Assembly (NCBI GenBank): GCA_010405405.1
Contig: MU004235.1
Location: 1,316,538 to 1,380,537 of the forward strand
Length of the DNA stretch: 64,000 nt
Direction: 5' to 3'
From: Microthyrium microscopicum
Taxonomy: Eukaryota
The translations under genes and the position numbers were made by a program. The notes under the pieces are model-generated. The model did no database searches. It had not been told where the DNA came from and was given only the letters and a program-made list of their open reading frames with translations. Shown in pieces: positions 1 to 38,360 of this stretch (position 1 is its first letter; every line of letters starts with the position of its first letter).

Positions 1-1190
1 TTCCAAGCGTCGATAGTTTTGGTGTCTTCAAAGACATAAGATGTTCCACCGGCAATTTTGAAAATGCGAGCTATTGGATGTAGATCCGTCGAATTCCAGT
101 CTATACTCTTCCACTTCAGCACTGGTGTCCATGGTAGAGCGCGCATTTTCATTGCCTTCTCCCAAATGTCACCAAATGATCGAACCGCCCTCTGTCCTGC
201 TACGGCATGGATACACCCGCGAGTACGCAGTGCAGTGTGCACAAGGATCCGATTCACAACCACATCGACGGGAACTTCGTCAATTTTGCTCTGAGCTGCA
301 GGATCATCAAAAGGTGATGCCCAGGTCATGCTCATTGACGTGCAAAGCACGCAGGCAGCAAGCATACCAGTTGCTGGCGCTGATCCTCGGATCTCATAGT
401 AGGGATAAGGCTCTCTAAGGGCAGGCCCAATAATAGAGGGCCTCACAATCAACAGCTGATCCACGTTGGCCGAGAAGTATTCAGTAAGTATTCTCTCTGT
501 AAGGTTTTTGGCGTATGAGTAAGGGTACGGGAAATTCGCTTTTTCAAAAGCAGTTGTGGAACCGGTTGCCAATAGTTCTTCGAGTTCCTGCTCTGGCTCA
601 ACAGGAGAAAGGGGATATATCTTCTCACTTATTGTAGTTTCAACATACTCGTTGACCATATGCAGGTGCGCGTTTGAATAGGCCGTTGAGATGTAAACGA
701 ATCGATCAACTCTCGGAGAGGCGATAGCCAGCTTTGCTAATTGAAGAGTTGGATATATGACGCTTTTTGCTATCTTCGGCAATGGATGAATGAGATTGAT
801 AGACGATGCTGTATGGATAATGATGGAGCATTCCGATAAGGCTTGAAGAGCGTCCTGATTGAGACCTAAGCTTTGCTGGGTAAGGTCTCCATTTACAGCG
901 TAGATGCGCCTACTATTGCGCAATCGTTCCCACGTTTGCAATGGCAAAGCTGATTGAAGCTGGCTCCACAGCCGTCTGCTTTCAAATTAGCACGTTCAAG
1001 ATCTGCTGTACAAGGAGAATTTCCCGTAGACTTACTGCTCCCCCCCTCGAACCAATGCAACGACCTTTTCACATGGCGTTGACATGACTAACTTGCAAAG
1101 CAGAGCGCATCCAACAAACCCTGTTGCCCCAGTCAGAAACACGTTACGACCCCGATAGTAAGAAGTGTTGAGCTGTGCCATGTGCTCCAT
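1..1190 (-). CDS. Fatty acyl-CoA reductase (male-sterility / NAD_binding_4 family), 3' end outside the window
   Basis: Manual translation: MEHMAQLNTSYYRGRNVFLTGATGFVG (Rossmann TGxTGF), intron 976-1035, then IIHTASSI, FVYISTAYSN, YPYSYAKNLTE (YxxxK), IVRPSIIG, DEVPVDVVVN. Absent from the ORF track, apparently because it runs off the window edge. Confidence 0.88.
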
Positions 1191-1912
1191 ATTGAATCAT
1201 ACGCAAATCCAAGTAGTCTAGGTAGACAAGTCCACAGAGCGATTCAACTTTTCAACATCTTTATGATAACTTTTCACGTGCTATAGATTATGGCAAGACA
1301 CTGTTTAGTAAGTGATTTGCATGACGTAGATCCTCCATATCTGACTACAGGCTAAACGATGGTAGACAGATGCTCCGCGGAATTCATTACGTTAGATCTG
1401 CAGAAATATCCGGAGAGCTCACAGAAGGCTCGCTTGCATGATCGAACAGAGATTGTAGTTAGAATATCCCGCCTTTACGCCCTCGACCCTTCTGCAATCG
1501 CTCATCGATAGACCTGAATGCGAATGATGATTGGTGGGATGCTCCAATTAGTGGTCATGCAATGTAACCAAAAATCTGTCACCTTGCATCATCCTGGATT
1601 GCTGCATTCGGTATACGTATAGACTTGGCGAGCCCAATCAAGAAGTAGGCTAAGGTGCACTCACCGCATTGAGCATACATTCATGCCAGCGCTTCGCGTT
1701 TGGATCGCGGACCAGCGTGCGACAGAATATGGCAGCCATTTGGATGCGACTCCGAGTGACTGCGATGTCTGCCATAACACTTCTCGAATGATATCTCGAC
1801 CAGTACTTTCCATTAGGTATATCATTCAATCAGTCTGTCTAAACGAATTGTTCCCTACTCTCCTAGTCTAAGAGAACAAAGAATCTTCACCATTACCAAT
1901 TATTACAAATCA

Positions 1913-2909
1913 CTACGCTCTTTTGGGCATCCATTTCCAGATAGCCATTACAACGACTAGCATTGGCACCGTGTATCTAAGCACCCGCCTGACACTCATG
2001 TAGATCGCTACCTTCCACAATTGCCTATGTGTGTCCATAAACTCCTTAGGTGTATTACCTGTGGGGAAACTGGAAGTTGGCACTGGCAAATCCAAGAACT
2101 GACACAACGGCTCCCAGCCCTGACTCACTCGATACTCTAGAATCCTGGTTGAATCAGTCGATGCTCGAACATTTTTGTTGTGCTCGAGATAACGCTGCTT
2201 GCAAAGTTCGCCTCGGTCCCCGCTACAGAATACCTGCCATATCAGGTTGACATGCTTGAACCAACGTCCACAAAGTCTTGGTTCGGTGTATTGCAACAGT
2301 TTCCAGGAGGGCCACTTGAACACGGTGAATAATGTCTTGTTCATTGACATCAACCATTGGTCAGGGTCATCGCGCACGTTGAGAATGACTTTGGCTTCAG
2401 GATAGGCCATAACAAGTTCGTCCACGAACAAGCAGCATGGGATGTCAAGCACCGCCTACAATGATGTTCAGTGTTTGTGCGCAGGCGGCAACGACAAGGG
2501 GTGTCAATAACTAACATCAAATTCGGCCGTAACTCGATCAAAGTCCGCCTTTTCCCATTGCCTTCCCTGACCGTGGTACTTGGCACGGATAGCCTCGTCC
2601 CAAAGGTGAAAATGCTCCTTGTAAAAGCGATCAATAAAGTCGTACGGACTGAAGCCAAGTTGCTTTAAAGCTGCGGCTAGTGCTGCGGCCCGATTGATTA
2701 GCGGATCGCTCAGACGCGGCTCGTCCCACAGATGGAGCTAGTACTGATTCATACTAGGGTGACATACAAGTGGTCCCTGTTCTCCCCATTCCGAGACAAA
2801 GCACTTTCATTGGTTTCTGTCGAACAATTCCATCCCTCTCATCTTTCTCAATGGATTCTAGCAAGCTTTGTACTCGCTCGAACTCAGGGTGTTCAACATT
2901 CGATGCCAT
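1913..2909 (-). CDS. Sulfotransferase-family P-loop protein (Sulfotransfer_4-like) with C-terminal TM helix
   Basis: Exon 1 MASNVEHPEF...KPMKVLCLGMGRTGTT (PAPS-binding loop), two introns, then AVLDIPCCLFVDELVMAYPEAKVILNVRD..W..SM and GWEPLCQFL, ending in a hydrophobic tail. Confidence 0.85.
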
Positions 2910-3346
2910 GGTGCTGGCTTGGTGTATGGAAGTTTTGGATGTAACTTTGTTTTCCCAAATTCATTCAATTAGTCCATAAAATAAAACTTGGGGATAATTT
3001 TGCATTCATCTGAAAACCATGAAGTCTGAAGACTGTCTTATAGGGCGACTTATCATCCCACTACATCTTCGGCCTTGAGTTGTCGATCTCTTGTCGTGCA
3101 TCCTGAGCTGAATAAAGAGAATACCGATATTCAAATATAAGTATGCATACAGTCTGACGCTGATCATAACACTTGTAATGGCGATGGCTTAGCTCAATAT
3201 CATGCAGAGCATCATCCTATCGCCAAAAGGTACTGCATTAGAAGGGCGCTGGAAATGGACCATTCAGCTACTGTTTTTGTATGTGAAGCGGAGATAGCAG
3301 CTGAATCACGCTTCTCTATCGTGCACTCGTTGCCAAATCACAGTTT

Positions 3347-3525
3347 TAATGGCAAGGCAAAATAAATGGTGTACTCTCATCAGCTCTAGACACTCTGCTA
3401 TATTATCGAGTGGTTTATTCGATATTCATCAGATACGATAGAAATTGAAGCATCTTGTAGTTAGCAGCGCTGGTGGTAGCCATCAGAGTTGATGGGAGTA
3501 CGCCACTTATCTTGCCATATCGTTT
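3347..3525. mobile_element. MITE, CAAC...GTTG family, degraded copy with internal deletion
   Basis: Left end taatggcaaggcaaaataaatggtgtactctcatcag and right end gttgatgggagtacgccacttatcttgccatatcgttt are inverted repeats matching the 61239-61450 copy, with several C>T changes. Confidence 0.8.
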
Positions 3526-3873
3526 AGATTATCCGGTAAATTGGCAGAGTGCATTGCACACATGTGGCGATCAGTGAAAGAGGATGTCGCCCTGAGGTCA
3601 TGCGCAGATGTAATATGCGAGAATGATGATATTTTCACACTCAATGCGTCGTTACATCACAATGGATGTTCAGGTCTTATCTTTTCTTATTCAACGGAAA
3701 TGAATAATGTGTGTCTTATCTTAGGCCAGAGTCGTGCTCGAAATCTGGGTGCAGATACTCCTTGTGGTCTATTGCCACGCACAACTTTGCAATTCTTATA
3801 AACGTTTCACTACCTACCTAAGTACCCAAGTGATTTCCGTGATAATTGGAAAACCCACTAGCAATCAAGACAG

Positions 3874-5766
3874 ATGGATACATCAAAATACGATATCAAG
3901 CTTAGTCGTCGTTCGGGGGGCAAAAAGATTTCTGTTTGGCGTATCAACACACTTCTTCGATATCTTTGTTTGGTCTGTGCCGTCTCCAATGCTTCCTACA
4001 TTTGTTATCGTACGTGGTCGACCCTCTCGACCAAGAGTATATCAATCGCAATATGGCTCGTTTTGCTATGCGAGATTGGATTATCACGTAAGCTTTTCAT
4101 TTTCTATCCATAGGCTGCTGGTTGACAATTATCAGTGCCCCATATACTTGCCTGCTTGCATGAAGCAGATATGTGCGCAAAATTCTCCGGCTGGAGACCT
4201 TCTTTGCGTCTTGCCGGTGATAATGTTCCAACCGTTGATGTCTTCATCACCTACTGCGGCGAGGGACTGGACGTTCTTCTGGACACAGTACACGCATCGT
4301 GTGCTTTGGACTATCCTCGCGAAAGCTTCCACATATATATCTTGGATGATCATGGATTCGATGGTGTCAGAGACGCACTGAAAGATGTTCAGGAAAAATT
4401 CTCTAATTTGCACTATGGCTGCAGAGGAGAAAAAGTTACTACGCATTCAAAGGCGGCGAACCTCAATTTCGGCGTTGAATATAGCGAGAAGCAATCCGCG
4501 TCCGAATTTCTTGCAGTTCTTGACGTCGATATGATTCCCAATCAAAACTGGCTTCGAGCTATGCTTCCCCATATTCTAAATGACGATCATGTGGCTCTGG
4601 CGAACCCTCCACAAGATTTCTACAACATACCAAAGAATGACATTCTCGGGGGGTCTTTCGAATTCAGATGGCTATCAGATGTCTTTATGCCGATGCAGGA
4701 CTGCGCAGGAAAGGCATGGTGTACAGGATCTGGCTTTGTGGTCAGAAGAAGAGCGATAGCCGATATTCAAGGCTTTCCAACGGCAACACTTGCGGAAGAT
4801 GTTCTAACATCAACACTGCTGTCAGGAAAGGGCTGGAGAGTCGTCCATGTCCATGAAGTACTACAGTGGGGATTGGCACCCACGGGCTTAGGAGGCATTC
4901 TGAAGCAACGTCAAAGAATGGCGGCAGGAATCGTCTCTGTGGCACTCCTCGGTCGGAGCTCAAAAGGTCGAGAGATTGGAAATGGGCAGAAAGCAGACAA
5001 CATGGCAATTGCCGTGATATACTCATTCGCTGCCATTGTTATCGCATCCTCGTCCATTTCAATCCCAATACTTATGGCTGCTGGATCTCAATTGATACAA
5101 TTCAAGACTCATACACAGTTATTGATTTGCTTTTGGCTTGGAAGTTTCGATTGTGTCTGTCAGTTATTCTATGGCATTGTTGAGAGCTCTCTGTCCGATT
5201 ATCGACTTCCAATCCTCAATCGCTTCAAAGGCTTATGGTCGGTACCCCATCGCCTACTATCTGTCTTTCAAGCACTCTACAGGGATGGGGACACAAAATT
5301 CAAGCCAACTGGACTCTCACTGCGCAGCGAGGAGATCCTGTACACCAGCGCTCTCCGAAAGAGGCTCAACTATGTTTTCCTTGAATGTTATCTTTTCGGC
5401 CATTTTGTTATTCTTCTGGCATGTCTACTAGGAGCATGGAAAACTTTCCAGCCGTTGACACGCATTTCGTTTTCAAAATCTTCGTCGCAAGCAGTATGGA
5501 CGGAGTTAATGCTTCAAGCTGGCTGGCCTCCTTTGTTACTCTTCTGGACGTCCGTTCTCGCGAACGCTTGGGTTCCTCTGTATTATGGGATTGCTCCTCC
5601 GAAACCTATTCTTAGACAAAGCCTTCTGAAACACTGTCCGAAATCAAATGCGCTAGTGCCGACCGAAACAGCTAAAGAGAACGATGAGCAACCGGTTACG
5701 CAGTGGCAGGGCCTATGGGTTGGTCTGTGGGTAGTGATGGGGGGAGCATGGTGTATTGTGCTGTAG
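3874..5766 (+). CDS. Glycosyltransferase family 2, cellulose-synthase-like membrane protein
   Basis: Exon 1 3874-4087 (two TM segments), intron 4088-4134. Motifs DVFITYCGE, HSKAANLN, DVD, AED and QRQRM (QxxRW variant), plus multiple C-terminal TM helices. Confidence 0.9.
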
Positions 5767-6155: not shown

Positions 6156-6970
6156 TCAAACTCTACAAAGCATCCCGTTTTTATCCTCCCAGCGTTCATT
6201 CACAGCACAAGCTTCGCACCAGAGAACGTCTTCTAGATCAACCTCTCGCTTGATCTCAAGAAGCCGAGGATAGTTGGTGCCCCAGAAAGCTTCCTGGAAA
6301 TCCGGCTCATATGTATGTGCCAGAATCACTACGTGTCAGCAAGTCTTTACACAAGTCAATGTATACCTTACTTCGTTAAGATAAATGCCCGAATCTGGTG
6401 CCAGTTCTCGTAGAGCAGCTGACCAATTATACGTCAACTTCTCAAGTGCTTCTGCTTTGGCGGTTGCATTCAACGGCGGCCAAACAACCCCTATTACTGT
6501 TTGCCTGTCAGATCACTTGCCTTTCGGCATAATAATACGTGTACGTACTTGAAAGAGTCCTCTATGCTGGGCTGATGGCACTGAAATTACTGGGGTAAGC
6601 ATGTGTTCCTGGGCCAGCTACAACATTGAATGCGACTGCTCCCGACCTGGCAGCCTGTTGTATGAGCCTGCTGAAGTTGGCATTATTCAATGCTCTGTCG
6701 TCTAGAATCCTGGATGCAAAGGCGATATCAATGCCAGCCGGAGTCGCGGCATCGGTCTGATGCTCAAGATACCAATCGTAGTAAGACGACCAGTCGTGTG
6801 CTTCCAAAATTTCCGATTGGATGTCAGAGCCATACGAGGAGTTGAAATGCTGTGCGAGTGGGTTGACAATTGCTAGAATCTCATCGAGTGTTTGAGTTGG
6901 CCCCTGAAACGTGCCAGAGAAAACCGATGGAGTGGTTACGTTACCCGGTACAGCACTGGCATACACTTAC
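6156..6970 (-). pseudogene. 5'-truncated FAD-linked oxidase (berberine-bridge-enzyme C-terminal domain)
   Basis: ASRILD, SPA*R (conserved PAWR with TGG>TAG at 6562-6564), SGIYLNE, YEPDFQEAFWGTNYPRLLEIKREVD...ERWEDKNGMLCRV*. No FAD-binding N-terminal exons are visible upstream, and a MITE end lies at 7012. Confidence 0.8.
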
Positions 6971-10563: not shown

Positions 10564-11779
10564 TCATTTCTTAGTCGCAGAATCCTCTGTTTCTTTCTCT
10601 GTGGTGGTTGTATTCGCTTCTTGGTTTGCAGAGGAGGATGGCTCTGCGTTCCGATCACTCAGGATGGATCCAACATCCCACCTGGTGATGGCGTGGTGGC
10701 CAGCCTCCCACTTCTTCAAAAGTACTGGATCATATCCACTCGGTATGCTCATTGCTGGCTTCTTTTGCTCTGGTCTTTTGATCTCTAGTCGGCCCATACC
10801 CGAGAAGCGTGATCCAGTTGTTGCTGCTTTCGCGACTTCTTCCTTCGCTGCTGCGAGCTCTGCCTCCAGGCGCCTATTCTCTTCAGACAATTCGCTGTCA
10901 CTGCGTGATTCCTTCTTTGCTTTAGCGAGCTCGTCGGCAAGTTCTCGATTTTCCTTCGCGAGTGCTTCGCTATCACCAGCTGCTGCAAGTCTTTTTTCTT
11001 TTTCTGTCAGCTCTTTCTCGCGAGCCTCGAGTTCTTTCTCTTTCTTCTCAAGTTCACTACCAGTAGAACCACTACTTGTACCTGCTTTCTCTCGTTCTCC
11101 CAGAGCCTTAGTTCGTGCTTCCAGCTCTTTCTTCTTCTCGTCGAGTTCTTCCTCTCTCTTCTTCATTTCTTCGGAGAATGAACCTTGAGCATCTTTTTCT
11201 CGGGCGTCCAATTGCTGCTTTCGGTCACCAAGTTCTTTTTCTCTCTTCTTGACCTCCTCCATCAGCTTTTCTGCCTCTGAATTCTTTTTCTCGTCGTCCT
11301 TGCCCACCTGAGACAAGAAGCCTGGCGATTTCGCATCTTGCAGGAAAAAAGTGAGTGCATGAATCCAGCCTTGCTGCTTTGGCCACATATATATCACATT
11401 GTTGTCACCAAGGCCTCCTCCCGCATTCGCCAAGTATGCATCTGGAAAATCAAGACACTTCAGCCTGTAGGATGGAGTCAGTAAGTTGTGTCAATTTGAA
11501 CAGCTTCTCATACCAATAGGAATCATAAGCTTGACCCGGCTCAGCTCGCCAGTACTGCTTTTCCCCAGTCTCAACCGGGGCAGAAGCTTGACCTCCCTTT
11601 GCACGAAGATATTTTCCATCTGCATTACAGCGGATGGCAAACTCATTTTCTGATCCTTCTTTCCGCTCAATAGTCCAGCGTTGGGCATCGCTGTTGTCCG
11701 GTTTCTTGTTTAAGATTCTTTCGCCGGATTTCGTGAGACAATTGCCGTAGGCAGAAACCGTAGTAATATAGACGGACAT
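10564..11779 (-). CDS. Ricin-B / beta-trefoil-like lectin domain plus coiled-coil protein
   Basis: ATG 11779 (MSVYITT), intron 11465-11513 joins the two ORFs. QRW and QYW motifs, followed by a long K/E-rich coiled coil. Confidence 0.7.
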
Positions 11780-12809
11780 GTTAGGCTGTAAACCATTCAA
11801 TGATGGGTACAATGTGTGGACGAAACTATTCAGCGAAAAATGGTTGTTAAGCCTTGTAGGCGACGGCCTCATTCAGAGTCAAATCTGGCACAAACGACAT
11901 TACAATATCATCTCCAATTCCTACCAGGTATGTATTCAGCCAACGAAGCCTTGGAAGCTCATGGCTTGTGACGAAATGATACAGAACTACTGTAGAGCTG
12001 CATAGAAGCAGGGATGTAGCTCAATGCAAGTTCCACATCAGATTTGTGGATATCAAAATATCGACAAGGTCCACGTCACGGCTCCTCCCGCAAGTTTAGA
12101 TCGGCATCGATATTTACGAAATAGCATGATACCCAAATCCGGGCTTGCGGTTGCAGATTAGCGAACGAGTGGCGTGAGAAACAATTCGTTTATGCAGCTG
12201 ATCGCCTCTGTCTCGGCTCTCAAGGTACACGAGTTGCTTCGCAGCTTTGAACTGCAAGTTGTTTCCAAAAATGATTTGTCGAGCATACTTTTTCTCAAGT
12301 AGCTGGTTGGCAAAACAAATGGCACGGCACGCTGATATCAAAAGCGGTGGTTTCCGTTAACGCGAGTAAGCAAGAAGTGCCATATTTTCCATGTTGTTTA
12401 TGAGCCTCCAACATATGAGCGATCCCTGTGGGAAATAAAGCAATCGATCACGAAGCGCAGTAGAAATTCGGCATCGTACTAGATGGGAGCAATTCCATTC
12501 TTTGTTTGCCCACCGCACAATCATATCTCTTGACTACAACAGCAGGAGGTGTGGTGAGAAATGAAATCCGAGGTTTGAAGGCAAGCTAGTGGAATGGTAT
12601 CCAAACTCTCTCATATCATTCTGTTGTACTTACATTGGAAAAGCTTTGATAGTTAGTCGGGTCCTGTTGCCTGGAGAATAGGAGAGAAAGGCTCCAGCCC
12701 AGCCTTTCCCAACCTTCCCCAACCTCATCTCGAGACAATAATTTTGGCTGTTGAATCAGAGAGTTTGGAAGCTCGATGTGTTAATCTTACCAGCCGCCCC
12801 TAACTCATC

Positions 12810-34983: not shown

Positions 34984-37900
34984 CCCATCGGTTAAGAACA
35001 CGATCGCCGCAGGCGATTAGGGACACCTTAACGAGGAGGACACCTTAATGAGGACTCTATTTACTGTAGATTACTAAATAATTAATCCTATATGCAAATT
35101 ATGATATTATTTAATGCAATTAATATAGGATGTGCCTATAGTACTATTCTATAGCTAGTATTAATTTTAGTAATTAATATTAACTTTTGGGGTATAATCC
35201 TATGTAGTAATTAAGTTATATAGAATATATAAAAATTATAAAATCTTTTAATTTTAATAATAACTAGAACTACCTAAAGTAAATAATACTTAAATTTTAT
35301 AGTAAATATAGTAAATGACGTACGTACTCTTATATTGTACGCTAGGAAGCGTTAAAGTCCTAAACGGTTAGTAGTACTTTAAGATTAATGTCTTTATCGC
35401 TAAAACTAGCTAAAGATTAATATTCTTTATTAGTAATTATATCTAGATTGTTTAGCGCTTTATTACTATAGCGTACTTTAATAAGATCTATAGGAAGCTA
35501 AGGAAGAGTAGGAAGCTATGAATTAAGATACTATTTAATTAGTATATCCTTTTCGTAATTATACTTAGGGCGATTGATTTCTATACCTAAAAGGTTACTA
35601 AAATACTACTACTAAGAGTAGGTTTGAGGGTAATACTACTATGGTAGAGTAAGATCTTTAAACTATAGTAGTAGTAAGTAATTTTAATAGAAATCTGCCT
35701 ATTCGTGCCTCTATATTTTTATTATCTTTTTGTCCTTAGTAGCGCGCATATTTAGAGGCTTAATTTCTTCCTTTTTAACCCTTATTTTATGCTTCTTCTT
35801 TAGTGGCTAAGATTCCTTAGCTACTACCGCCTAAGATGCTTAAATGAGAGTAATTTTAAGCTTAGAATCCTTAAGATCTATAATCTGTGAAGCTTTCAAA
35901 GCTTTCTTGATGGTAGTATTCTTTCGTCTTATAATAATACCCTAAAGATTGGTCCAATTCTAGTTAGCAGCCTTCTTAAACGACTTAACGATAGAGTAAT
36001 AGAAGAGAGAGGGATAAACGTAATTGTGGAGGGCAAGTTAATAAAGAAGCTATAGATCTATAATATAAGGTTAAATTCTATGCTAAGTATTTAGTAATTC
36101 TAACGAGCCTATAATATTATAATCTTAAAGGTTCGTAGCGTAGATAAATCTACCTTTTTAAGCCTATTTCCTAGATCTAGATTTTATTTGTTTATTGTAA
36201 AGTTAAGCTAGATATAAGTTAAAGTAGTAATTAATTAATTGCGTGTAGAGAGAGGCTATTGCTTTAGTAGCTATTAAAAATGTCTTCCTATTTATTCTTC
36301 TTTGTTACTATAGATCTATAGGAACTAAAAATACTAAAGAATGATTCTATGATTGTACCTATATTAACATCTCTTTAAAGATTGCTAAATGCGTTAGAGG
36401 AAGCTAAATCTTAGGTAATTCTATAGCTTTAGGTATTATAGTACGTTTTCTAAACTTCTAAGTCTTCCTATTCTAATTAGGGTGTATTTTTAGGCCTACT
36501 AAAGGATTTACTATAGGTATATGATTAAGTACTAAATAAGAATTAAAGGGCACTATTCCTATATGTCTCTAGGTACTCCTAATATTATTTTTAGTAAAGG
36601 TTTAAGATCTAATATGCTTAATTGCGGTAAAGAAGTGTTATTTATTAAAATTAATAATTCCTTAATAGGCGTAGGTATTAATTTCCTCTAAATGCTAGTA
36701 TTTCTATAGTTGAAAGATATTAATATCTAATAGTTATAGAAAGTGCGTTAAATATAGAGGTAGAAGTAATAATTTGATCTTATTTAGCTTATAGAATAGT
36801 ACGAACTAGTAGGTAAGATAGCTCTTATATTCGTTGATTATTAGAAGCTACTAGCGAGCCTTCTTTCGTGCTTAATCCTTTAGCTAGTATTGCTTTAAAA
36901 GTTGTTAAAAATGCTATATCTAGATAAATCCTAGGTAGTCGTTTAAATAACTACTATCTAATACTACTGTAGCGAAGTTAGTACTCTAGATTTAGTAGTT
37001 TTAAAGCTATTAACTTACTAATCATAATATCTCTTAATATAAGCCTATTGAACTAAGATTTTAAGATAATATGGCTTTTAGTAATAAAAAAAGGCGTAAT
37101 AGTTCTTTTACTAGTAGAATAGGCCTCTACGGACGTTAAATTCTCTTAATTACTAAGCGATTTAATATAATTATAATAGCTATTAAAGAACTTGCGATTA
37201 TTAAGCATAACTACTATCTAGCCTCTTTCTATACTAATTTAAACGCCTATTTTATTTATATTCTACTAATCTTTAGTTAGAATATTATATTTATTAATTA
37301 TCTCTTTATAATTCTAATAGAACTTAGTAATAGCATCTCTATTTATTACCTACTTATAAGCAGCTTTAATAGTAGGTTAAAATCGTAAAGCAAAAGATAA
37401 GCGCTTTATTTAATGGCGAGCCTATTTTGAGCTAACTTAAGGTTGGTTTTGGAAGAGAATATTATTAATATTAAGGATATCTTGTTATAGGATCTCGTTA
37501 GTAGCACTCTATATAAGCTTAACCTAAATAGAGACCCTAATCTTTGCTATAAGGTTAAAATATTGCTTTAGGGTACTTTCTTGCGCTTTAGAGAGTTTTT
37601 ATTAGTTTAATTTGCGTAAAGAATAAGATTTAGCGCGACTAGTATATTATTGGTAAAGTCGTTTAGGGTGAATTAAAGGGAATTTTATAGTAAGGATCTT
37701 CTATATAGTCCTAGGCTATTTATCTTTAAATTCTATAGCTTTTTTAATAGTTACTTCTTTATCTATATATAACGCGTAATTCTGCTTTATTTACTAGGTT
37801 TTTAAAGGTATATTAGTAGTAGTAGAAATAATTATTAAAGTAATAAATTATTAAAAGAGCTAGAATTATTATATTATAAATAGTAGAACTAGAACTGCTT

Positions 37901-38360
37901 TATTATATAAAGTTAGATCTACTAAGAGGGTCTAAGCGTTAAATTCTTATTTATTATAACTACTTTGCTAAAAGTGTATATTATTTTCTAAAAATTTAGT
38001 AGTATATTTAAACGGGTATAAATAAAGTTTAGTAAAAATATGAAAACTATCTAATAATTAGTTGCTAAGTAGTTATAAGGAACGTATAGAAATTAAGAAA
38101 TACCGACCTAATTCTAAGTTGAACTAATGATACTTAACTATTTATACTATAGCTAGTTTTTAAGATATAATTCTTAAAATAATATAGGATTTATAGCTTC
38201 TGCTATGGAATATAATTCCTCTTTTAGAATTTGAAAATATTACGTTTTGGCTACATGGCAGCTATATAAAGCAAAGGGTACAGAAAGAGTCCTCGTTGAG
38301 GTGTCCTCCTCGTTGAGGTGTCCCCGATCGCCTGCGGCGATCGTGTTCTTAACCGATGGG
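34984..38360. mobile_element. RIP-inactivated DNA transposon (3377 bp) with 75-bp TIRs and TA flanks
   Basis: TIRs 34984-35058 and 38286-38360 (cccatcggttaagaacacgatcgccgcaggcgat...ggacacctcaacgagga x2). Extremely AT/TpA-rich interior with no ORF. TA at 34982-83 and 38361-62. Confidence 0.92.

Follow-up and report, generated by a model that had tools for sequence, protein, structure and literature searches.

Several routes to amphiphilic glycolipids have been described. The sophorolipid and ustilagic-acid clusters are PKS-free; in them, a hydroxy fatty acid formed by a P450 is glucosylated by GT1-type UGTs, and the resulting lipids retain their carboxyl group. Cyanobacterial heterocyst glycolipids act as surface barriers and are made by PKS-type enzymes together with another GT family. 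To our knowledge, the fungal glycolipid clusters known to date begin from hydroxy fatty acids or polyketides. The structures of sophorolipids and of ustilagic acid (a cellobiose lipid) are covered in section 4.2 of a review that also describes heterocyst glycolipids as hexosides of long-chain alcohols; fatty-alcohol glycosides do not form a class in its table of simple fungal glycolipids, and its text nowhere contains the string 'sulfat' (PMC5884252). In burnettramic acid (bua) biosynthesis, P450 hydroxylation of a long chain is followed by β-glycosylation (BuaG/BuaB) (PMC9685919). Burnettramic acid and epicoccamide (epi) are among the systems closest to the locus presented here, with a P450 and a glycosyltransferase yielding a two-headed amphiphile (PMC9685919, PMC11905612). 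Unlike this locus, however, they rely on a PKS-NRPS to build the chain, and the six epi genes listed there include neither a fatty acyl reductase (FAR) nor a sulfotransferase.

The locus lies at the left end of a 64,000-nt stretch of Microthyrium microscopicum DNA (GCA_010405405.1, contig MU004235.1), referred to here as the window. In contrast to the sophorolipid and ustilagic-acid clusters, it encodes a FAR, which would remove the carboxyl group, a multi-pass GT2 and a sulfotransferase; heterocyst glycolipids differ from the product proposed below in being bacterial and unsulfated. No publication on this combination was found in the literature covered, from which subscription journals were mostly absent. 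The three genes are adjacent and undamaged, at the site and in the orientation given by the initial annotation, and the gap of about 960 bp reported between the divergent sulfotransferase and GT2 genes measures 964 nt (2910..3873), a putative shared promoter. Comparison of the three cluster intergenic regions gave no convincing common motif, only chance-looking 8-10-mers (without a shuffle control). The genome holds at least one FAR of the window type, at least three Sulfotransfer_4 loci and at least three GT2 loci of the window type; the chance that random placement would put both a sulfotransferase and a GT2 within 5 kb of the FAR is about 7e-7, a post-hoc figure that is indicative only. In a search of the genome contigs the FAR was single-copy, and ORF listing of the paralogous GT2/sulfotransferase loci on C3, C7, C12 and C17 revealed no second FAR cluster.

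The FAR gene (minus strand, 1..1190 in the window) starts at ATG 1190, has one intron (1035-976) and ends at a stop codon 196 nt left of the window start, encoding 441 aa in two exons. Its N-terminal domain matches NAD_binding_4 (PF07993, E 7.6e-26) and carries the cofactor motif TGATGFVG (TGxxGxxG) and the catalytic YxxxK. A fold search with a model of exon 2 (pLDDT 90.5) returned rice DPW as the best match (7eoz, E 2.7e-14), followed by PKS/NRPS terminal R domains (3.6e-9), and the predicted whole-chain fold appears nearer to FAR enzymes than to epimerases or to the R domains of CAR and NRPS enzymes. The modelled fold thus supports the earlier identification as a FAR. DPW and other male-sterility FARs also gave the top sequence-profile match and share cofactor and catalytic motifs of identical type; the window enzyme differs in being only about 17% identical to DPW and in having no Pfam match to the C-terminal Sterile domain (PF03015), with a structural alignment to DPW that covers 440 columns.

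The sulfotransferase gene (minus strand) runs from ATG 2909 to a stop at 1913, with introns at 2767-2683 and 2515-2456, and encodes 283 aa in three exons. Exon 3 matches Sulfotransfer_4 (PF17784) with an E value of 3.2e-43 and 148.5 bits against a cut-off of 22.8; the 5'-PSB loop GMGRTGT is intact, and the C-terminal tail is moderately hydrophobic, below the hydropathy threshold of 1.6 applied. Among PDB sequences it matches best the Schistosoma oxamniquine-activating SULT and SgdX2 (E from about 3e-16 to 6e-15), both solved Sulfotransfer_4-type structures. A 2024 survey describes fungal sulfation as largely unexplored; in its accessible part, the characterized fungal SULTs are aryl types of PF00685, and PF17784 is not mentioned (PMC11677658).

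The GT2 gene (plus strand) extends from ATG 3874 to a stop at 5766, with one intron (4088-4135), and encodes a membrane protein of 614 aa in two exons that matches PF13641/PF00535. It combines a GT-A fold bearing DxD and catalytic ED motifs with membrane helices thereafter, and its top sequence and fold matches are BcsA/CesA, a fold typical of processive synthases. TFT1 is a demonstrated glucan synthase, and members of its lineage are 70-96% identical to AfTFT1 (bioRxiv 10.64898/2026.09.17.752320). The window GT2 would seem to fall outside that range, being 34-37% identical to the genome's own TFT1-like paralogue on C3, against which identity was measured; comparison with AfTFT1 itself used its printed 11-residue switch motif alone, of which the window GT2 has 2/11 residues at the aligned place and the C3 paralogue 6/11. 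The enzyme resembles A. fumigatus TFT1 and A. nidulans CelA as a fungal BcsA-like GT2, and differs from them in its altered QxxRW motif (QRQRM, with Q and R intact), its FAR linkage and an Arg at the pore position aligned with AfTFT1 I551. Arg or Lys occupies that position in 53/69 rows of the FAR-linked GT2 clade described below vs 1/51 outside it and, on alignment, this suggests a changed acceptor or product. Loss of the QxxRW tryptophan was rejected as a family-wide mark of non-processivity, since the residue is retained in 51/69 clade members (and in five of the six GT2s linked to a FAR in the first pass). Overall, the window GT2 looks like a diverged paralogue of the fungal TFT1 mixed-linkage glucan synthase and not like a known lipid glycosyltransferase; the lipid-glycosylating role given to it in the initial annotation finds no backing among its nearest characterized relatives, which make glucan polymers, not glycolipids. 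A Nod/Myc-LCO route was also considered and rejected, as the GT2 does not match the model of NodC-type chitooligosaccharide synthases; the flanks read contain no deacetylase or N-acyltransferase of such a route.

The cluster had been suspected to extend leftward, and the upstream sequence bears this out. A cytochrome P450 gene (L002:7478-9151, plus strand, about 0.35-2.0 kb left of window position 1; 509 aa, three introns) is convergent with the FAR; its P450 motifs are intact, and from motif resemblance it may be CYP52-like. Beyond it lies an AT-ACP-TE gene (P0001; L002:4155-6460, minus strand, about 3.0-5.3 kb left of position 1; 752 aa) with an ACP motif GLSSM and the C-terminus -AKL. A 138-aa ORF between the two was dismissed as a non-gene, as it overlaps the P450 start on the opposite strand and has no Pfam match. 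The AT-ACP-TE protein departs from a non-reducing PKS in having neither a KS nor a PT domain and in lacking the malonyl-binding Arg, which at Ser+25 of the AT is Gln in both AT-ACP-TE copies and Arg in 6/6 PKS controls. Because this protein has no ketosynthase, the locus is without a chain-building PKS, as had been proposed, yet it is not free of PKS parts. Membership of the AT-ACP-TE in the pathway is uncertain.

One run, X1, whose RNA nature was deduced from its splice joints, provided contigs in which the P450, FAR and sulfotransferase are spliced; the joints match the FAR intron, the second sulfotransferase intron and all three P450 introns. Contig depths were not used, and expression levels cannot be ranked. 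The GT2 lacks cover in X1 and, since a single contig set cannot demonstrate silence, its absence was counted neither for nor against the pathway.

Linkage in other fungi was assessed from FAR and GT2 homologues on contigs of exactly equal size, a measure that does not read gene order. In a first pass, six of 120 FARs shared their exact contig size with one of 119 GT2s (0.2 expected), all among the 47 closest FARs and none among the remaining 73. The window FAR and every first-pass linked FAR fall in one 46-row clade (support 97), with lichen-forming fungi among its members, and every first-pass linked GT2 falls in one 69-row clade (support 98), with sister pairs concordant between the trees; both are FastTree trees only, with long-branch warnings around the window GT2. 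A prediction based on the trees then matched 16/46 members of the FAR cluster plus one additional pair, giving 23 equal-sized contigs in total where 0.28 would be expected; 19 are shorter than 22 kb. These span five lineages besides that of the window, 16 of the 23 coming from one lineage (P0101/P0103/P0105). The other 30 of the 46 listed FAR clade members have no GT2 match, and none was found for the named lichen FARs P0107, P0116 and P0539 among the best 120 of 181 GT2 matches. More distant FARs have unrelated neighbors: none of 32 metagenome loci, many of them short, has a GT2, sulfotransferase or P450 beside the FAR. As searching the metagenomes by FAR alignment yielded distant FARs only (24-43%), it is no test of the close clade.

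From contig sizes, then, FAR-GT2 linkage appears to be conserved in other fungi, including lichen-forming ones. The synteny check proposed for all three families therefore came out in part, as sulfotransferase linkage outside this genome comes down to one gene model. In P0334 (cf. Caloplaca, a lichen fungus), a GT2 model runs into a Sulfotransfer_4 N-terminus; over 74 aa this shares 53% identity with the window enzyme, as against 35% and 42% shared by the paralogues within the genome. The P0334 GT2 is not a member of the FAR-linked clade and has no known FAR neighbor; no other of the 257 FAR/GT2 matches carries a sulfotransferase, P450 or AT piece.

Our preferred, though tentative, reading, held at somewhat under even confidence, is a small lipid-tailoring cluster with a FAR + GT2 core that converts a fatty alcohol to a β-glucoside and then a sulfate, possibly two-headed via P450 ω-hydroxylation. 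The FAR, assigned by family and fold, would use NADPH to reduce what is presumably a long-chain acyl-CoA or acyl-ACP to a primary alcohol. To this putative acceptor the GT2, which by fold and catalytic motifs derives from an inverting enzyme of the TFT1/cellulose-synthase type, would attach a single sugar or a few, with β-glucose donated by UDP-Glc the likeliest choice. The sulfotransferase, assigned by family, could then transfer sulfate from PAPS to a hydroxyl of the sugar or to the opposite end of the chain. By analogy, the P450 probably ω-hydroxylates the chain, which would make a two-headed glycosyl-alkyl-sulfate possible, and the AT-ACP-TE might either provide or attach a non-malonyl acyl group, or else play no part. 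Such a pathway would presumably yield an anionic amphiphile destined for the surface of the cell or thallus.

Alternatively, the FAR and GT2 might make a neutral alkyl glycoside, with the sulfotransferase (perhaps also the P450 and AT-ACP-TE) a local passenger or active on another substrate. This is unlikely, even though the FAR-GT2 linkage alone is repeatedly supported and the sole outside GT2-sulfotransferase link involves another GT2 clade: the sulfotransferase is located between the FAR and the GT2, divergent from the latter, and P0334 joins its close relative to a GT2 of the same family. Moreover, no shared FAR-GT2 contig is below 8.6 kb (0/28), a weak hint that other genes could fit in between. 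A serious rival is a glucan coat linked to lipid and possibly sulfated, because the GT2 has a cellulose-synthase fold and the look of a TFT1 paralogue; here the enzyme would still be a processive β-glucan synthase, and the fatty alcohol a primer, an anchor or a co-secreted wax. The BcsA/CesA matches, the TFT1-like switch motif of the C3 paralogue (37% identical) and the QxxRW retained across most of the clade favor such a product. Its probability nevertheless seems low, given the M or L in place of W in the window GT2 and its two nearest relatives, the basic residue at the I551 position, and the poor match of the window enzyme to the TFT1 lineage in both switch motif and identity.

It is improbable that the substrate of the FAR is a non-fatty thioester, whether a polyketide or some other acyl group delivered by an AT-ACP-TE shuttle or by a PKS at another locus, which would make the aglycone something other than a simple fatty alcohol. 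Speaking for such a substrate are the loss of the malonyl-binding Arg in both known AT-ACP-TE copies, the PKS/NRPS R domains placed second to DPW in the fold search and the reducing PKS genes adjoining more distant FARs in two of 13 loci examined (L030 and L032). On the other hand, the AT-ACP-TE has one full-length relative among the matches listed, the FAR-GT2 pair being far more widespread; its ACP motif reads GLSSM, and its gene is crossed by spliced antisense RNA. Finally, it is very improbable that the genes are neighbors without a common pathway, brought together by hitch-hiking synteny in a variable region or serving as separate detoxification enzymes. The repeats and pseudogene in the flanks would fit, as would the lack of a transporter, regulator or common promoter motif in the locus; however, linkage is kept among proteins whose identity to the window copies is mostly just 32-36% for GT2 and 45-54% for FAR, whereas more distant FARs have other neighbors.

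A bolder and rather doubtful extension of the preferred pathway is that a cellulose-synthase-like lineage was repurposed, along with a FAR, for the synthesis of alkyl (oligo)glucosides, which at this locus would be completed as sulfated two-headed amphiphiles, the conserved pore Arg binding sulfate. The FAR + GT2 pair would then mark a class of surface glycolipids, so far unannotated but widespread among lichen-forming fungi and their relatives, controlling wetting or photobiont signaling; if true, sulfated alkyl glucoside surfactants would become accessible by enzymatic synthesis. The conserved pair offers a way to search for clusters that have no core synthase. The cluster could also link a fungal Sulfotransfer_4 enzyme to a natural substrate class and reveal a glucan-synthase scaffold that has turned to a lipid as its acceptor; with three to five genes, it is small enough for reconstruction in yeast.

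The flanks of the locus contain repeats and a probable pseudogene. The latter, on the right flank, is the C-terminal remnant of a BBE-type FAD oxidase (6159..6966, minus strand; PF08031, E 1.8e-7) with an in-frame stop at 6562-6564, and it was left out of the proposed pathway.

Three adjacent genes occupy the left edge of the window, which belongs to a 2.5-Mb contig in a fungal genome of 37 Mb. One protein encoded 3 kb left of the window is identical to P0001, whose source names it as Microthyrium microscopicum. The fatty acyl reductase (FAR) gene starts at an ATG at position 1190 on the minus strand and runs past the left edge of the window by 196 nt; it has one 60-nt intron and encodes 441 aa (PF07993). 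The sulfotransferase gene (2909–1913; two introns, 283 aa, PF17784) shares this orientation, and the plus-strand glycosyltransferase gene, GT2 (3874–5766; one intron, 614 aa, PF13641/PF00535), diverges from it, the two starts lying 964 nt apart. The initial annotation had described this layout, with a gap of about 960 bp and no disabling lesions, and all three reading frames proved uninterrupted. The genome contains at least one FAR of this type, at least three Sulfotransfer_4 loci and at least three related GT2 loci. Within the cluster, two intergenic segments, each about 37 nt long (window about 1681–1717 and 3466–3504), are matched by contigs of the RNA run X1 that diverge on both sides; these are short elements common to other transcripts.

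A leftward extension of the cluster had also been suggested, and two further genes were indeed found beyond FAR. A P450 gene (L002:7478–9151; 509 aa) lies directly left of FAR and convergent with it, followed by a gene with AT, ACP and TE domains by Pfam (L002:4155–6460). Because of this AT-ACP-TE gene, the description of the pathway as PKS-free was too strong, although the locus holds no chain-building PKS. Identification as an NR-PKS cluster was rejected, as the AT-ACP-TE protein has no ketosynthase or product-template domain. Further left come degenerate repeats and unrelated genes; degenerate tandem-repeat arrays with a weak zinc-knuckle match (L002:1300–3800) form the left boundary of the locus. 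On the right flank, a BBE-type FAD oxidase survives only as a C-terminal part (window 6159–6966, minus strand) that has an in-frame stop and no recognizable FAD-binding part upstream, and is possibly a lost cluster member.

Conservation of the locus was assessed through FAR and GT2 matches on contigs of exactly equal length from the same source, with chance estimated from near-misses. Comparing the best 120 of 241 FAR matches with the best 119 of 180 other GT2 matches gave six such pairs (0.2 expected); all six linked FARs are among the 47 closest, and none of the 73 other listed FARs matches. In FastTree phylogenies, the window FAR and the six linked FARs fall in one 46-row clade (support 97), which includes the lichen fungi Lecanora helva and Heterodermia aff. 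obscurata, and the window GT2 and the six partners in one 69-row clade (support 98). Sister pairs are concordant between the trees: FARs P0113/P0123 with GT2s P0287/P0295, P0101/P0115 with P0317/P0298, and window FAR/P0086 with window GT2/P0220. The matched pairs also include P0104/P0225 and members of the P0105/P0327 clusters. A prediction set beforehand, that members of sister sequence clusters should match too, held for 16 of 46 listed FAR cluster members (11/15, 0/12, 4/7, 1/6 and 0/6), and one further pair (P0093 with P0544) was matched. In total, leaving out the 73 outer FARs, a comparison of 87 FAR lengths with 136 GT2 lengths gives 23 in common (0.28 expected). The matched contigs measure at least 8,617 nt, and none of the 28 FAR contigs below that size matches. 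Sixteen of the 23 matches come from one lineage, with five lineages in all besides the window; among the GT2s listed there is no partner for the three FARs of named lichen fungi, one of them Heterodermia speciosa P0539. This indirect evidence suggests that FAR and GT2 are co-inherited in other fungi.

The most likely mechanism, put forward tentatively, is one in which FAR would reduce an acyl thioester to a fatty alcohol, GT2 would β-glycosylate the alcohol at the membrane and the sulfotransferase would add an O-sulfate, with ω-hydroxylation by the P450 allowing a two-headed product. The enzyme families, the intact motifs and the splicing of three genes are observed, and together with the indirect FAR–GT2 link they partly support the glycolipid proposed in the initial annotation; every substrate, the step order and the product are inferred. 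The predicted structure of FAR exon 2 (pLDDT 90.5) matches rice DPW first, with PKS/NRPS R domains behind. The GT2 model (pLDDT 91.4, without exon 1) matches BcsA first, and a lipid-primed or lipid-associated glucan is an unlikely but serious alternative product. The DxD and catalytic ED motifs of GT2 are intact; the Trp of QxxRW is Met here, but 51 of the 69 GT2s in the clade have Trp, as do five of the six first-pass partners. Aspergillus fumigatus TFT1 has been shown to be a mixed-linkage glucan synthase whose product is altered by mutation of I551 (bioRxiv 10.64898/2026.09.17.752320). The window GT2 was rejected as its orthologue, retaining 2 of 11 switch-motif residues versus six in the genome's C3 paralogue. 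Arg or Lys occupies the position aligned with I551 in 53 of the 69 GT2s of the FAR-linked clade versus 1 of 51 others, a clade mark among related rows and not a significance test. Distinctly less probable is a non-fatty aglycone supplied via AT-ACP-TE. Only one of 81 matches to this protein is a full-length relative (P0002, 66% identity); apart from it, the best 150 matches of a representative search are much longer proteins (27–37% identity), with PKS motifs in all five inspected. The malonyl-binding Arg, present in six of six PKS controls, is Gln in both copies. Because its ACP serine motif is GLSSM, versus the canonical GLDSM of P0002, the window-genome protein, which ends in -AKL, may be poorly pantetheinylated or decaying.

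Equally doubtful as the glucan is a neutral alkyl glycoside with the sulfotransferase as a passenger. The synteny expected from the initial annotation is indirectly indicated for FAR and GT2 but, for the sulfotransferase, appears only in P0334 (cf. Caloplaca sp.), the one sulfotransferase-bearing protein in a screen of 257 FARs and GT2s, whose GT2 lies outside the FAR-linked clade (FastTree). This GT2 model, probably a merger of adjacent genes, runs on into a Sulfotransfer_4 N-terminus with 53% identity to the window enzyme over 74 aa; the genome's own paralogues show 35% (251 aa) and 42% (59 aa) and lack the PYDFIDRF stretch common to the other two. Among solved structures, the window sulfotransferase is closest to the oxamniquine-activating enzyme family and SgdX2. 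Fungal pathways can sulfate, as the echinocandin pair McfP and McfS shows, but there the substrate is a homotyrosine ring (PMC10832530). That the genes share no pathway at all is quite improbable.

In its mode of action the locus would resemble sophorolipid-type clusters. It would equally resemble the burnettramic acid/epicoccamide clusters in their tailoring half (PMC9685919, PMC11905612). Having different core enzymes, it belongs to neither group. A NodC/LCO locus was rejected as the identity of the cluster, and no description of the FAR, sulfotransferase and GT2 combination was found in the open-access literature.

Transcription was assessed from one set of contigs assembled from X1, which contains a 0.46 share of the words sampled from the stretch L044. 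At the predicted places, the contigs join across three introns of the P450 gene, the single intron of FAR and the second intron of the sulfotransferase gene; these three genes are spliced in X1, and a single set of this kind cannot demonstrate co-regulation. Spliced plus-strand RNA antisense to AT-ACP-TE was also observed (L044:≤159–1523, about 2.6–4.0 kb left of the window). Three further plus-strand GT..AG joints lie inside the gene, implying that spliced antisense RNA covers the promoter and the 5′ half of AT-ACP-TE. In this RNA no ORF beginning with Met exceeds 74 aa; the RNA could be regulatory or form an extended leader on the P450 transcript.

More distant FARs occur in other settings. 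None of 32 metagenome loci carrying them has a GT2, sulfotransferase or P450 neighbor, and Pfam neighbors in 13 of these are mixed (MFS, FSH1 hydrolase, GMC oxidase, reducing PKS). Some of these fungal FARs adjoin reducing PKS genes, at L030 and L032, or FSH1 serine hydrolases, at L024 and L027, which hints at further clusters that include a FAR. In the P0176 sequence cluster (Aspergillus flavus group), FARs are mixed with CRAL-TRIO lipid-transfer proteins; the accessions are consecutive and one model has 747 aa, reflecting a neighboring FAR and CRAL-TRIO pair. PF04032 or PF06516 domains occur in five GT2 models of lichen fungi that fall outside the FAR clade (P0222, P0226, P0239, P0240 and P0254); they probably stem from merged neighbors and mark another conserved context. 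Elsewhere in the window, a minus-strand gene (10564–11872) encodes a protein in which a long coiled-coil repeat comes after a ricin-B lectin domain, and an AT-rich block (35000–38000; 27% GC) that bears a strong signature of RIP (TpA/ApT 1.56; (CpA+TpG)/(ApC+GpT) 0.39) is probably a mutated repeat.
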